Shown one piece after another: positions 33,001 through 39,000 of a stretch of DNA of 64,000 bases. The position numbers were made by a program. How positions within the stretch are numbered: the stretch's first letter is position 1; each line of letters starts with the position of its first letter. The stretch comes from Escherichia coli O157:H7 (GTDB lineage Bacteria; Pseudomonadota; Gammaproteobacteria; Enterobacterales; Enterobacteriaceae): the NCBI RefSeq assembly GCF_013167455.1, contig NZ_CP038328.1; one strand, written 5' to 3'.

Positions 33001-36000
33001 GAAAGGAGCGTCGGCGTTGATTTTTGCGCAGCTTCAATGGCTTTATCTATCCCTATTTTGTAGGTATCGACAACTTCACGATTTTCCATTGTTTTTGGGT
33101 CAAAAGATCCCTTATCAAAAGGAAGTTGTCCATAACCAAGATCATCCATGGTCAGTACGATAATATTTGGCTTTCCTTTGGTACTGTATTCAGTCGGCGT
33201 AAAGTCTGAGAAAGCAACGTTTGTTTTGGTTGCTTTCAGCTTTACATCATCTGCCGCATGAGCAGCAAATGCAGCCATACCAGATGCCAGTATCAAAGAT
33301 ATCGAGGTACTTACGACACTTTTCTTTAATGCAGACTTCATAAATGTTCCTCTTCTTATTGTACTTAATTCCAAAGTAATTTTACGAAGAGAAATAAGTG
33401 GATGTAAGTGAAGTTAGTCACATAAAGAGATAGCAGATTTAGCTAAAAAAAGGGAAATAACAGTCCATAAAGCGTTGACATTACTTTTTATTCTACTAAG
33501 TAATTTCTCGACGATAAACAATTAATCTATTGATATTTAATAAATTATTGTATTTTACTAACAAAATGCCGAATTGAGATCATAAATAATCATGCAACAA
33601 GTTATGCAAATGCATAAATATGTGATGAATGTCACTTATTTATTTCAATAAATATATCGCCTAAAAACAACGCGGGGCAGGGAATGACTGCCCCATTTTT
33701 AATTTTTACGTAGGGTGCGTGGTTGACTACTCGTTAGCAAATAATCAAATAGCTAAAGCATTCATCGTGTTGCCCGTATTCATACCCGTGTGCCTTTGAC
33801 AACGGTACTCCTTAGAAACTCTCTTTGGACTGTTGCCGAAATGTTTGCGGAACGCATAAATAAAATAAGATGTACTGGCATAACCACATTGTTCGGCAAT
33901 TTTATTGACTGAACCTTCTACGCGTATCAAATTTTTTGCGTGCTGCATTCTGGCATCTAAAAGAATCTGTGAGAATGTCGTTTGCTCTTGCTTTAGTTTT
34001 TTCTTCAACAGGCTTTCACTGATGTACAGGCAGTCACAAATATCTTTCAGCTTCCATGGGTGCGCCAGCTTCATGTTGACAATATTTCTCACTTTCCCCG
34101 AAACGGATAGCACACCGTTAGTTAATAGTGTAATGAAACCTTTGCATGTGGCAAAAATAGACAGGCAAGAAAAAAGCAAAAGTTCTGAAAAATTATGATG
34201 ATTGCGTTCTTCCGAGTTGAGATAAGCAATCATTTCATTAAGCAATCCAGTCGGTACATTCGAAGCACGTAAAAACTTCGCAGGAACAGGCATCGTCACT
34301 GTCTGGATGTTAGTGCATTGTAGATATTTTTTAATGGTATTTTCATTAAATCCGATTTCTTTAAAATGCCGCTCATAAGGTTCAAAATGCGTACGAACAG
34401 CGTTATCTACCATCAGGATCTCGCCGTCAGAGAAGGCGTAATCTTTATCTAAAATGTTAGCGTTGAAGGCATGATGAATAAATATAACAGAACAAACGAG
34501 CGACATTTTATCTCCTTAAAACAATAAAGTTTTATCGATACTTTTTTAACATTTCATATTTATAATTTGCTGTTTATTTTCAGTCTTGCAAACTATTGAC
34601 AATGAAATGTGTAAGATCTCTTGCAATGCGACCCATTTCTGAAATACCCAGCTGATCAATTGCCGAAAAAATGGCTATCAACGTAAGGGTCAGTAATAAG
34701 ATAACCACAATTACAGACATGATTTCTTTATAGTTGTCTCTTTGCGTGATTTTGTTTTTCACTGTGGTCGCATGCATTTCAAATATGTTTATTTAGCGGA
34801 TAACGTTAAAAATCGTTAATCAGTATGCTTAATATAACAGGCTTGAGAAAAGAGGAAATAGGACTGGTGCTTCAGTACTGAGCGGAGTTTCTTACAGCTG
34901 TAGGCAGAAGTTTATATCTTATAGTATGTAGTTTAATTTAATCCATGTGAGCAAATTGCGCGATAATAATCAATGAGGAATTCTTCTGCTGTGCGGATGA
35001 CAGCAGAAGAAATGAGAAGAGGCATTAATTTGATGGTTCTAATTCAACCGGAATACTTTTATAGCCAGGAATGCCACTTAATGGATCGTGGTTATCAAGT
35101 GTTAGCATGTGATTCGATTCTGGAAAATAGGTCACCAGTGAGCGGTCAGCCATAGGGTAAATGACCACTTTTAATCTATCCATGCGGCGTGAGCTGCGCT
35201 TACCGTCTGGCGTAAGCGCAATAAGATTAACTCTTTCGCCGTTTTTTACACGGCAAATTTTAGCTTGTTTAGCACTCATAAAGACCACATCTCGTTGACC
35301 GAATACCCCTCGATAGCGATCATCCATACCATAAATCGTCGTGTTGTACTGATCGTGGCTGCGTACTGTCGCCATGACCAGCTTACTGTTAAACGCTGAA
35401 GAGGGATCTTCTAACAGCCCTTTGCTGGTAATGAAATTAGCCTTACCTGACGGCGTCATCCAGCGCCTTTCAGCAGCTGCATTTATCAGGTGAAAACCAC
35501 CGGGATGACGGATGCGTTGGTTATAGTCGGCGAACTCTGGCAGCACAGCTTCAATGTCATTGCGAATGCGATCATAATCTTCCACCAGATACTCCCAGGC
35601 TACCACGCTCTGGGGTAGTGTTGCCTGCGCGATTCCCGCGACCACAGCACACTCTGATTTCAGCATTACACCGGCGGGTTTTAACACGCCACGCGAGGCA
35701 TGAATCATCGACATTGAATCCTCAACGGTTACCGCCTGCGCACCGCTTTTTTGCATGTCAATCTCGCTACGTCCCAGAACCGGCAGAATATAGCTATGCC
35801 GTGCGGTCAGCAGATGAGAGCGGTTAAGCTTAGTGGCTACGTGTACCGCCAAATCTAATTGCGTTAACGGTACAGCGCTCGCTTCCCGATCTGGCATTGC
35901 CAGTGCAAAGTTGCCCCCCATGCAGATCAATGCTCGAGCCTGCCCCGTACATATTGCTTGCATGCTGGCAATTGCAGCATGTCCAGGTACATGAGGTGGG

Positions 36001-39000
36001 GTGAAGCCATAGCGCTCACCCAGGCGAGCCAGAAACTCTACAGACGGTTTCTCGGTGATACCGACGGTTCGGTCGCCCTGTACATTAGAGTGGCCACGTA
36101 GTGGGCAGATACCCGCACCAGGCTTGCCAATGTTACCTTTCATCAACAGCAGATTGACCAGTTGCTGTACATTCTGGGTACCATGTTCGTGCTGAGTGAT
36201 CCCCATTCCGTAACAGATAATGGTTCGTTCGGCAGCGGCATATGCATCAGCCAGTTCGGCGATTTGTGTCTGACTTAGTCCAGAAATACGTTCGATATCT
36301 TTCCACTCGGAATTGAGCACGTCACGGCGTAGCTCGTCAAAGCCGACGGTATGCGTTTGAATAAATTCGTCATCCAGCAATGAGGGCCGACCTGCGGCGC
36401 TTGCAGCATCATCGCGCTCAATTAACAGGCGCATCATCCCCTTGAGCAACGCCATATCACCACCAATGCGCACGTTATAGTAGGCACTGGCCAACTGAGT
36501 CTCAGAGTTCGTCAGCATTTCAAACGGGTTTTGCGGTGCGGTAAATCGCTCCAGGCCACGTTCCTGTAGAGGATTGATGGCGATCATTTTCGCTCCCCGT
36601 TTCACTAAAGCGCGCAACGAAGTCAGCATGCGAGGGTGGTTTGTACCAGGGTTATGCCCAATGCAAATGACTAAATCGCACTTCTCAAAGTCTTCCAGCA
36701 ACACGGTCCCTTTACCTACACCGATACTCGCTGCCAAACCCACGCTTGTCGGTTCATGGCACATGTTGGAGCAGTCGGGAAAGTTATTGCTCCCGTATTC
36801 ACGGGCAAAAAGCTGATAAAGAAAGGCAGCTTCATTGGAAGTGCGGCCCGAAGTATAGAATTCAACCTGATTGGGATCACTATAGCTTTGAAGGCGTGCG
36901 CCAATTTCGTCGAAAGCTTGTTGCCAGCTTAATGGCTTGTAACAGTCGCTGACAGCATCATATTTCAAAGGCTGAGTGAGACGTCCCGCAGCCTCAAGCT
37001 CGTGATCTCCCCAGGTAAGTAATGATTGAACCGTATTCTGAGCAAAGAAAGAGGCATTTACCTGCTTATCCGTGACTTCCCAGGCGATTGCTTTTGCGCC
37101 GTTTTCACAAATGTCGAATGACGCACTGTGCTTAGGATCTGGCCATGCACAACCCGGACAGTCAAAGCCCTCTGGCTTATTCATGTCAAACATGGCAATA
37201 ACATCCTGGCGTATATCCATCTGCTTACGTACTGCATTCGCTACGGATTTAACAGCACCCCAACCACCGGCAGCACCCTGGTAGGATTCAATTTTTTTCT
37301 TCATCTACTTATCCTGTGTGGAAATGAATTATTAGGATTTGTAATAGCGATGATGCACAGTACATACAAAGGGATTATCGCCAACATGGATATATAAGAG
37401 TAGGGGACTACTCTCTTTCTATTTTTAATCTATTATCGTTAAACAATAGATTAAATACGATAAGGTAAGCATCATCTCTCATAGTGTTTAAATTAACATA
37501 TTTTTCAATATAAAAAATAAGACTCTGGCTTCAATTGTGCGCGGATTTTCTTACAAGTGTAGGATAATAGCCTTCACAAAATAATTATCCGCGCAATTTT
37601 CGTGAATGGAGCGCATAGACTAAGGTCAAAATCACAATTATTCATAGATAAAAGTGACACCAATGACTGACTGGACGGTTCCGGCTGAAACTTTGTTCCC
37701 TGTTTGTCCATAGGTTGCGCTTAAACCCAGAGGTACTTTGCTTTTATTTACTGTCCCCAGGGAGACATTTTCTCCCGTAGCCAGTATTTTTCCATTACGC
37801 ATCAGAGAGACACCCACTCCCGATGCTTTTGTTGCATCTGGTGCTGTGTTAGCAAACACTTGTCTAGCACTGTCAGTGGTAGTACCCGAAAGATAAAATG
37901 AGAGCTTTTGTTCGCTTGAGCAATATACGCCAAGGGGGATTTCTGCGCTTCCAGGAAAGTCCGGGAGATTCACGGTGACATTACGACTATCAACAGTGCA
38001 GCCGCCTGTTGGCATAACAACACTGTTATTTGAAATAATATTCCACGTAAAATTACGCGGATTTCCGCTTCCTAACGTGGCAATTTTATACATATGAATA
38101 CGGGCAATAACTTCCCCGGCTTTTATGACAACTCCACCGGCCGCCCCGACTGGGGTAATATAGAGTTTTAACGGTAATGGCATCGGTGTCTTATCACCAA
38201 TATCCAATACGTTGGTATTTGTCGTCAACGGGAAGGGGTAGGTCACATTATTCCAGTACAGCGATCCTTTATATGACTGTAGAGAGCCTGCGAAAGCTGA
38301 GCCTTGTACCAGGTTTATATGATCAGTGTCGTACCAGCCGCCGTAATCATTCCAGCAACTTATATGCTGAGACAAGTCTACAACCAGATTCTGGCCCGGC
38401 TGTATTACAGGGTCGAGATTAACATAAACAGAGGTTGTACCAGCTCCAATACTTGACCCGCCATCGACATTACAACTGAAGGCAAAAACTTTGCCTGCCA
38501 TTAATAGAAGATAAATACCGAACAGGACCTTTATACTGATTGTTTTACCCATGATATATCCTAAGGTTAAAAAATTGATTTAAAAAGAAGGCTAAGAAAA
38601 TCGAATCGACGTTATTGCCAGGTGTAGATCACATTGATTAGCGCCTCGATCGTTCCCTGGCTTGCGTTTCCATTCACCGTGATAGCTCTTGCCTTAAGTG
38701 GAAACTGTGCATTACGAGTGATCTCATCAACAATAACCGTTTTGCTATCGCCATTTTTTAACGTCGCATCCTGGTCATCCCTAAGCTCTATCTGAATATT
38801 TTCGGCAGTACCTTCATTTTTGTAATAACCCGTATTGTCAGTTGAACCTGTCACGATTGCCGTCACTGCACTTGTTTCAGCCGGACAATCGGTTAATGAC
38901 AAAGTAATATTGTGCCAGCCAGATGCAGAACCAGGTTGTTGCAGATTGCGCGTATAAAGATCCCCGAGATTAACGTTAGCTTCTTTGGTTTGAATAGTGC

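Follow-up and report, generated by a model that had tools for sequence, protein, structure and literature searches.

The window, the 64-kb stretch of Escherichia coli O157:H7 DNA that was analysed, carries three genes of the EvgA-dependent acid-resistance cascade, ydeO, safA and ydeP, and each of the two transcription units, safA-ydeO and ydeP, has an inverted repeat in the non-coding DNA upstream of it (Table 1). The gene identities and the gene order agree with the reading made earlier from the sequence alone, which had placed two EvgA-box-like repeats upstream of these genes. The encoded proteins are full length, have no internal stops and share 248/253 (YdeO), 60/65 (SafA) and 754/759 (YdeP) residues with K-12.

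Table 1. Genes and regulatory features of the safA-ydeO and ydeP locus (positions are those of the window)
Feature	Position	Strand	Description
ydeO	33745..34506	-	AraC-family activator of gadE; 253 aa, intact
safA	34580..34777	-	first gene of the safA-ydeO operon, PhoQ-activating connector; 65 aa
safA promoter module	34829..34888	-	60 bp, box to predicted start; 55/60 columns invariant in 10 strains
predicted extended -10, safA promoter	34831..34839	-	TGTTATATT; read from sequence; invariant in 10 strains
EvgA box of the safA-ydeO promoter	34889..34906	-	TTCTTACAGCTGTAGGCA; 1 mismatch to consensus
ydeP	35025..37304	-	acid-resistance oxidoreductase; 759 aa, intact
ydeP promoter module	37488..37547	-	counterpart of the safA module; 52/60 columns invariant in 10 strains
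extended -10-like element, ydeP promoter	37490..37498	-	TGTTAATTT; read from sequence
EvgA box of the ydeP promoter	37548..37565	-	TTCTTACAAGTGTAGGAT; 1 mismatch to consensus

Both repeats are present where the sequence-only reading had put them, and the strings that it gave were verified; the proper 18-bp register is that of Table 1. Two details had to be corrected. The core said to be shared over 16/17 bp is in fact identical at 14/17 positions, the differences being the two spacer bases and the final base, and the CAGAA that had been added to the end of the first site (34888-34909) lies out of the consensus register. When the spacer is left out, the two sites are identical at 14 to 15 of 15 positions, TTTCTTACA and TGTAGG being the same in both. 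On the gene strand the safA box reads TGCCTACA-GC-TGTAAGAA and the ydeP box ATCCTACA-CT-TGTAAGAA, so that the promoter-proximal half-site is perfect in each. The safA box is situated 112 to 129 bp upstream of the safA ATG and the ydeP box 244 to 261 bp upstream of the ydeP ATG.

The proposed resemblance to TTCYTACA-N2-TGTARGAA holds up well. In a scan of the window with the consensus TTCYTACANNTGTARGAA, an 18-bp inverted repeat, each of the two sites had a single mismatch, and they were the sole matches in the 64 kb even when up to three mismatches were allowed (0.56 expected). With at most one mismatch, two sites were observed where 0.00 were expected, and none was found in any of 100 dinucleotide shuffles. 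A scan with an EvgA position weight matrix (PWM), which the sequence-only reading had named as a check on its sites, came out in their favor. The matrix was trained on five EvgA-target sites outside the locus (K-12 emrK, frc, two from yfdX, and yegR), and it gave 22.68 bits for the ydeP box and 20.98 bits for the safA box, compared to 9.53 bits for the runner-up in the window. The maxima of 200 shuffled windows had a mean of 12.6 bits and a largest value of 19.56 bits, and both boxes score above this. An Rfam search of the whole window gave no family match.

At each box, all but one of the 16 half-site positions (15/16) are invariant among ten diverse strains, and the flanks of the boxes are less conserved than the half-sites. 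The safA box has 17/18 invariant columns, and the spacer of the ydeP box occurs as three alleles, CT, CC and TC. Half-sites that are kept next to a 2-bp spacer that is free to vary are what purifying selection on the half-sites predicts. The exact 40-mer containing the safA box was found in 2,651 complete E. coli genomes and the exact ydeP box allele of the window in 1,380 genomes. The K-12 counterparts of the two boxes lie at 1584071-1584088 (safA) and 1586730-1586747 (ydeP) of that genome, and the safA box is base-for-base the same. The K-12 ydeP box is found at the orthologous position and differs from that of the window at two bases, one in the spacer and the other at position 2 of the distal half-site (on the ydeP gene strand, T in the window and G in K-12). 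With one mismatch to the consensus, compared to two for the K-12 allele, the O157 allele is the closer of the two.

The same motif marks other EvgA targets. In 64 kb of K-12 DNA around these targets, non-coding matches with zero to two mismatches occur only upstream of emrK/evgA, frc, yfdX, yegR, safA and ydeP, and the only matches inside coding sequences are in mdtE (two mismatches) and ydeO (three mismatches); the one inside mdtE is probably due to chance. The boxes at emrK/evgA, frc (yfdW), yfdX, which has two sites, and yegR consist of the same 18-bp repeat in both K-12 and O157, with zero to three mismatches, and every one of them lies between genes, upstream of an operon that EvgA induces. 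Upstream of K-12 gadE there is no match to the consensus with three or fewer mismatches. As EvgA is reported to act directly on gadE as an activator, the consensus must miss some of the EvgA targets.

These data bear on two other explanations of the repeats. Intergenic regions are AT rich, and DNA of this kind often contains short palindromes, which raises the question of whether the repeats are chance palindromes without a regulatory role. The shuffles speak against this for both the consensus and the PWM, the conservation follows the motif, and the other EvgA targets carry it as well; we give this explanation practically no credence and regard it as effectively refuted. The repeats could also be bound mainly by another regulator of the NarL/FixJ family with a related hexamer, for example, RcsB, instead of EvgA. 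The RcsB box is TAAGAAT-ATTCCTA, and the TTCYTA/TARGAA core of the half-sites resembles the cores recognized by RcsB and BvgA, but the halves of the RcsB box have the opposite relative orientation and lack the CA..TG inner bases. RcsB takes part in the same acid-resistance network (PMC7174508); against a main role for it here, the motif co-occurs specifically with EvgA-induced operons, including the intergenic region of evgA itself, and the literature places both promoters directly under EvgA (PMC9496106, PMC7174508). We therefore find it very improbable that RcsB or a similar regulator is the main protein binding to these sites.

The EvgA boxes of ydeP and b1500(safA)-ydeO in K-12 are reportedly of the 18-bp form TTCPyTACA-N2-TGTAPuGAA, and these exact bases are said to have been mutated or footprinted. 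The two repeats in the window, which we take to be the EvgA binding sites described at safA-ydeO and ydeP, are very probably EvgA boxes, that is, sites where an EvgA dimer would bind to activate safA-ydeO and ydeP. The sites, their statistics, position and conservation were computed here, and the direct binding of EvgA and the EvgA-dependent induction come from the literature. EvgA was found to bind directly to the safA-ydeO promoter (PMC9496106), ydeP is under direct EvgA regulation and is rapidly induced by acid (PMC7174508), and every directly regulated gene has an EvgA site (PMC4283999). In a figure legend in PMC3720670, EvgA is described as binding to inverted repeats that precede yfdX and yfdW. 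EvgA control of safA-ydeO and ydeP is already known biology, and the circuit gains nothing new from our analysis.

Mild acidity would activate the EvgS kinase, and the response regulator EvgA, a member of the NarL/FixJ family, would become phosphorylated. A dimer of phosphorylated EvgA on each 18-bp box would then activate the promoter downstream of it. Expression from the safA-ydeO promoter would provide YdeO, the activator of gadE and of the genes for glutamate-dependent acid resistance, as well as SafA, which would lead to activation of PhoQ/PhoP, and the second promoter bound by phosphorylated EvgA would drive ydeP.

The sequence-only reading had concluded that the wiring from EvgS/EvgA to YdeO to GadE appears intact. 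The window alone is insufficient to judge this, because evgAS is located elsewhere. Between positions 33600 and 38700 the window is 100% identical to O157 strain FDAARGOS_293, and in that strain EvgA is identical to K-12 EvgA at 204/204 residues, EvgS is full length at 1197 aa and about 97.8% identical to its K-12 counterpart, and the same EvgA boxes are present at emrK, frc and yfdX. Since EvgA and EvgS are intact in a strain that is identical at the locus, and YdeO, SafA and YdeP are intact as well, the claim is supported at the level of the sequence: in an O157:H7-type strain the EvgA branch appears to have kept its cis sites, its regulator and its target genes, with gadE situated outside the window.

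It could still be that the boxes are real but that the cascade is inoperative because EvgS is unresponsive to acid, a trait of many group B2 strains, so that the wiring would be intact in cis only. The EvgS proteins of several B2 strains are indeed unresponsive at pH 5.7 despite a conserved network (PMC5706723), and the EvgS of O157 differs from that of K-12 at about 26 of the 1197 residues. In the same study, however, the non-B2 strains tested, among them EDL933 (O157:H7, group E), induced the PyfdX (EvgA) reporter 8- to 60-fold at pH 5.7, and EvgA was identical in EDL933 (PMC5706723). Together with an EvgA identical to that of K-12 and target genes that are all intact, this makes a silent cascade unlikely. 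The EvgA branch confers acid resistance in the exponential phase, which is relevant for the passage through the stomach and for the low infectious dose of EHEC.

The similarity between the two promoters does not end at the box. The safA and ydeP modules share 39/60 identities in a fixed register, compared to a mean of 17.0 (standard deviation, 3.4; maximum, 27) when the register is shifted. Right after the box 21/30 positions are identical, and upstream of the box the similarity is at chance level. Both modules have the same layout, with the box followed by a TCCGC-CA...TGAAGC...AGTCYTATTT block and then, at identical spacing (+50 to +58 after the box), by a TGn-extended -10. The other EvgA promoters have an in-register identity of 19 to 26/60, compared to the 39/60 for ydeP and safA, and show no extended 60-bp similarity; a CA at +9/+10 after the box is present in 6/6 EvgA promoters.

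A 178-nt ydeP leader has been used previously (PMC11210196), and its 5' end corresponds to position 37482, 8 nt downstream of the end of the extended -10. With this 5' end, the center of the ydeP box lies at -74.5, and with a predicted start at about 34823, the center of the safA box lies near -74.5. Both promoters would thus use a TGn-extended -10 located 50 to 58 bp after the box, with the box near -74.5, a class-I-like activator position. A generic sigma-70 scan gave no promoter upstream of safA. Upstream of ydeP the scan gave TTGAAG (37534-37529) and TATATT (37512-37507) with a spacing of 16 and a start near 37500. We disfavor this pair for ydeP, as it implies a leader of about 196 nt, which clashes with the 178-nt leader (PMC11210196). 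The putative TGn-extended -10 is preferred because it is common to both promoters and because the 178-nt leader disagrees with the pair from the scan.

The module shared in register suggests that the stretch from the box to the -10 holds an element not yet characterised, and this conserved block may contribute in some way to activation. The weight matrix did not reveal a second EvgA site there, as no match above the runner-up's 9.5 bits is present anywhere else in the window, and by eye only 5 to 6 of 16 positions in the block match the consensus, so the sequence offers no support for such a site. It is conceivable, though we hold this only tentatively and think it rather less likely than its opposite, that the ydeP and safA promoters are two copies of a module of about 80 bp, that the regulon has grown by local promoter duplication, and that the shared block is a second functional element needed for activation from about -74.5. 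If this were the case, the block could contain low-affinity sites for extra EvgA dimers, as in BvgA promoters, or serve as a contact for alpha-CTD. In Bordetella, the BvgA sites at the fha and bvg promoters are inverted heptads of the TTTCCTA type. Like EvgA, BvgA is a phosphorelay regulator of the NarL/FixJ family, and its target is likewise an inverted repeat that has a TTCYTA-like core and lies far upstream of the -35 region. The differences are that BvgA belongs to another organism and controls another regulon and that its promoters carry arrays of several dimers down to the -35 region. Of the characterised homologues of EvgA, BvgA is the closest (PMC8174306).

According to a 2026 preprint, safA is repressed by PhoP. 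When the safA leader was examined for PhoP boxes, the best candidate, at positions 34806-34822, had three mismatches, which is at chance level (179 such matches in the window compared to 149 expected), and it was rejected. A perfect PhoP-box-like repeat precedes the F9 fimbrial operon next to the locus. This repeat and the induction of SafA by EvgA suggest a path by which EvgA would act on the F9 fimbriae by way of SafA and PhoQ/PhoP.

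The two EvgA boxes that a sequence-only reading had quoted upstream of safA-ydeO and ydeP are both present where it placed them. The safA box lies 112-129 bp upstream of the safA ATG, within the ydeP-safA spacer, and the ydeP box lies 244-261 bp upstream of the ydeP ATG, within the ydeQ-ydeP spacer. Read on the gene strand, both consist of an imperfect half, an N2 spacer and a perfect half (TGCCTACA-GC-TGTAAGAA for safA and ATCCTACA-CT-TGTAAGAA for ydeP), so the perfect half-site is promoter-proximal in each. The nonspacer segments TTTCTTACA and TGTAGG are the same in the two boxes. 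The core that was said to match at 16 of 17 bp in fact matches at 14 of the 17 bp quoted, with differences at the two spacer bases and at the last base; apart from this small counting error, the observation is correct. Several E. coli O157/O157:H7 chromosomes match the surrounding region (33600-38700) with 100% identity, and the region was found in 5,397 of 5,426 complete genomes of the species. About 30 of the 5,426 are without the whole region, which is consistent with an MP1-type deletion (PMC5706723). Strain CEC13002 has an IS1203-family insertion inside the ydeO-ydeQ stretch, strain B20123 has an IS3-family insertion in ydeR, and in strain Z503 the ydeP upstream region is matched over 27% only.

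Features of the ydeO-F9 stretch; mismatches refer to the EvgA consensus TTCYTACANNTGTARGAA (18-bp inverted repeat with N2 spacer), and +n counts from the box end towards the promoter on the gene strand
Feature	Coordinates	Strand	Remarks
ydeO	33745-34506	minus	
safA	34580-34777	minus	
safA -10-like element	34839-34831	minus	TGTTATATT, TGn-extended, +50..+58 after box
safA box	34889-34906	minus-strand operon	TTCTTACAGCTGTAGGCA, 1 mismatch
Hairpin after ydeP	34981-35011	minus	perfect 12-bp stem, TTCTTCTGCTGT / ACAGCAGAAGAA, 7-nt loop
ydeP	35025-37304	minus	
ydeP 5' leader	37305-37482	minus	
ydeP -10-like element	37498-37490	minus	TGTTAATTT, TGn-extended, +50..+58 after box
ydeP box	37548-37565	minus-strand gene	TTCTTACAAGTGTAGGAT, 1 mismatch
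F9-type fimbrial operon	37638-44047	minus	ydeQ, ydeR, ydeS and intact usher
F9-type usher	39672-42323		883 aa
-10-like CATAAT	44257-44262		
PhoP-box-like repeat	44274-44290	minus	TGTTTAGTCACGGTTTA, perfect direct repeat

In the 64-kb window, the safA and ydeP boxes are the only consensus matches at up to 3 mismatches (0.56 expected), and no match at up to 1 mismatch occurred across 100 dinucleotide-preserving shuffles. We also used a symmetrised weight matrix made from five EvgA-target sites, all from outside the ydeP/safA locus. The ydeP box scored 22.68 bits and the safA box 20.98 bits, and the third-best site in the window scored 9.53 bits. The maxima over 200 dinucleotide shuffles of the window had a mean of 12.6 and reached 19.56 at most, so both boxes clearly pass the matrix scan that had been proposed for them. 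The explanation that the boxes are chance repeats is excluded by these shuffles, by the presence of the motif at other EvgA targets in K-12, and by the conservation of the half-sites across ten strains.

The consensus was checked by scanning regions of K-12 MG1655 at up to 3 mismatches. The 20-kb evgAS region contains four matches and no others: one with 0 mismatches upstream of frc, one with 2 mismatches in the emrK-evgA spacer, and a pair upstream of yfdX with 1 and 3 mismatches. The sole match in the yegR region lies 107-124 bp upstream of yegR, with 1 mismatch. The K-12 ydeO-ydeP region has a safA box identical to that of the window, a ydeP box that reads TTCTTACAGGTGTAGGCT, with 2 mismatches, and an additional 3-mismatch match within ydeO. 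The matched operons are those listed in the literature as directly EvgA-activated: inverted repeats bound by EvgA sit upstream of yfdX and yfdWUVE (PMC3720670), and PemrK and PyfdX serve as direct EvgA reporters (PMC5706723). Papers also report direct activation of gadE by EvgA; about 800 bp upstream of K-12 gadE contained no consensus match at up to 3 mismatches. The one match in the 16 kb searched around gadE, with 2 mismatches, lies inside mdtE (7887-7904 of L005, the K-12 gadE piece) and is probably due to chance. Another NarL-family regulator, RcsB for instance, is unlikely to bind the boxes, as the motif specifically tracks the EvgA regulon and the RcsB box has its half-sites arranged differently.

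Conservation was followed in an alignment of the two intergenic regions across the window, K-12 and a further eight strains that span 87.7-98.5% identity in the ydeP upstream region. Among these ten strains, 17 of the 18 columns of the safA box are invariant, and the outermost distal base alone varies (T or C). In the ydeP box, 15 of the 16 half-site positions never vary; the remaining one, the second distal base, is G in K-12 and T in most strains. The ydeP spacer has three alleles, CT, CC and TC. Invariant columns make up a smaller fraction upstream of the boxes (0.78 and 0.60). As read from this alignment, constrained halves with a free spacer are the pattern predicted by the consensus. Among complete genomes, 2,651 contain an exact 40-mer around the safA box and 1,380 have the ydeP box in its O157 form (megablast; O157 allele alone counted). 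The ydeP box is thus polymorphic, and the K-12 allele (8731-8748 of L003, the K-12 ydeO-ydeP piece), which has one mismatch more than that of O157, differs from it at two positions, one in the spacer and one in the distal half-site.

The biology of the two boxes has been known since 2003-2009. Masuda and Church (2003) are said to have derived the 18-bp inverted repeat, and mutation of the repeats upstream of ydeP and b1500 reportedly lowered EvgA-dependent expression and acid resistance. EvgA was reportedly footprinted at the ydeP and safA-ydeO promoters by Itou et al. (2009). The safA-ydeO promoter is bound directly and induced by EvgA (PMC9496106), and ydeP, under direct EvgA regulation with very rapid acid induction, is the standard EvgS/EvgA reporter (PMC7174508; PMC8174306; PMC5573083). 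EvgA activates ydeP, ydeO and gadE (PMC11210196), and all directly regulated genes have an EvgA binding site (PMC4283999). It follows from this literature that the mechanism is the known one. Mild acidity would be sensed by EvgS, leading to phosphorylation of EvgA, a dimer of which would occupy each box and would switch on transcription of safA-ydeO and ydeP.

As evgAS is located outside the window, the O157 strain FDAARGOS_293, 100% identical to the window at the locus, was used. Its EvgA is that of K-12 (204/204), its EvgS is full length (1197 aa, about 97.8% identical to K-12) and its boxes at emrK, frc and yfdX are the same. In the window, YdeO, YdeP and SafA are all full length, with 248/253, 754/759 and 60/65 identities to K-12, SafA being the most diverged. 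EvgA is identical across ten strains, including EDL933 (PMC5706723). A single rival carries some weight, and it bears on the interpretation and not on the sites: a natural EvgS variant may make the cascade unresponsive to acid. Such variants have been reported, and group B2 strains mostly show no pH response, but in the tested non-B2 strains, a set that includes EDL933, the EvgA reporter was induced 8- to 60-fold, which argues against such a variant in O157 (PMC5706723). The earlier interpretation that the EvgS/EvgA to YdeO to GadE wiring appears intact is therefore supported at the sequence level by the intact EvgA, EvgS, YdeO, SafA and YdeP, and indirectly by these published data. The FDAARGOS_293 annotation gives yfdE, with which the EvgA-induced yfdXWUVE oxalate cluster ends, as a frameshifted pseudogene (16684-17825 of L014, a piece of this strain).

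Minor leads are the extended similarity of the two promoter modules, the difference between the O157 and K-12 ydeP box alleles and the PhoP-box-like promoter upstream of F9. After the boxes, safA (34829-34888) and ydeP (37488-37547) share 39 of 60 bases in a fixed register, compared with a shifted-register null of 17.0 (sd 3.4, max 27). Identity is 21/30 over the first 30 bases, the observed 19/28 was reached by just 5 of 66,704 background window pairs, and the 30 bp upstream of the boxes are at chance level (7/30). In contrast, other EvgA promoters have 19-26/60 in common with these modules. The -10-like elements both read TGTTA(T/A)(A/T)TT. That of ydeP ends 8 nt before 37482, the position at which the 178-nt ydeP leader of Gorelik et al. 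begins (PMC11210196); a start at 37482 puts the box centre at -74.5. By analogy, safA is predicted to start near 34823, which would give it this geometry too. A generic promoter scan gave TTGAAG-16-TATATT for ydeP instead, with a start near 37500, and called no promoter upstream of safA. Across strains, 87-92% of the columns are invariant in the stretch that the two promoters share from box to -10 (A-TCCGC-CA----TGAAGC...AGTCYTATTT). This stretch may be the trace of a duplicated promoter module, a place where EvgA makes secondary contacts of the kind seen at BvgA promoters, or a contact for the RNA polymerase alpha-CTD; the window scan detected no second EvgA site with the weight matrix. The frc and proximal yfdX boxes of K-12 (in the evgAS piece, L002) have CTCTCTGATT in common at +23..+32. 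Of six EvgA-dependent promoters examined, all have CA at +9/+10 and four have a TCYT(A/C) core around +26..+30.

The F9-type chaperone-usher operon adjoining ydeP is complete in the window, with usher, chaperone and fimA-like subunit. That of K-12 is truncated (L003: short ydeT, the yneL pseudogene, then hipA) and is without the PhoP-box-bearing part. The PhoP-box-like repeat lies 11 nt upstream of its -10-like CATAAT; the fimA-like major subunit gene has its ATG at 43999, and the repeat is 275-291 nt upstream of this codon. It is the sole match to KGTTTA-N5-KGTTTA at 0 mismatches in 64 kb (0.05 expected), and 3,355 complete E. coli genomes contain an exact copy of the surrounding 56-mer. This suggests that EvgA could act on F9 fimbriae by way of SafA and PhoQ/PhoP, along a path whose putative cis elements would all lie within 10 kb; a literature search for F9 fimbriae and PhoP gave incidental co-mentions only.

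The hairpin after ydeP, 13 nt beyond the stop codon, is invariant in ten strains, and the 70 nt around it fold at -18.2 kcal/mol (z = -3.8). It is without a T-run and is not called an intrinsic terminator, and therefore read-through from ydeP into safA-ydeO seems possible; one paper uses the phrase 'ydeP-safA-ydeO operon' (PMC11052181). The ydeP 5' leader has no match in Rfam and is predicted to be structured (MFE -40.7 kcal/mol, z = -3.35), with a 14-bp hairpin at about 37425-37456 and an 8-bp hairpin at 37396-37415, whose loop is variable in one strain, both enclosed by a predicted long-range helix. Some strains carry a 5-nt insertion immediately 5' of the 14-bp hairpin.
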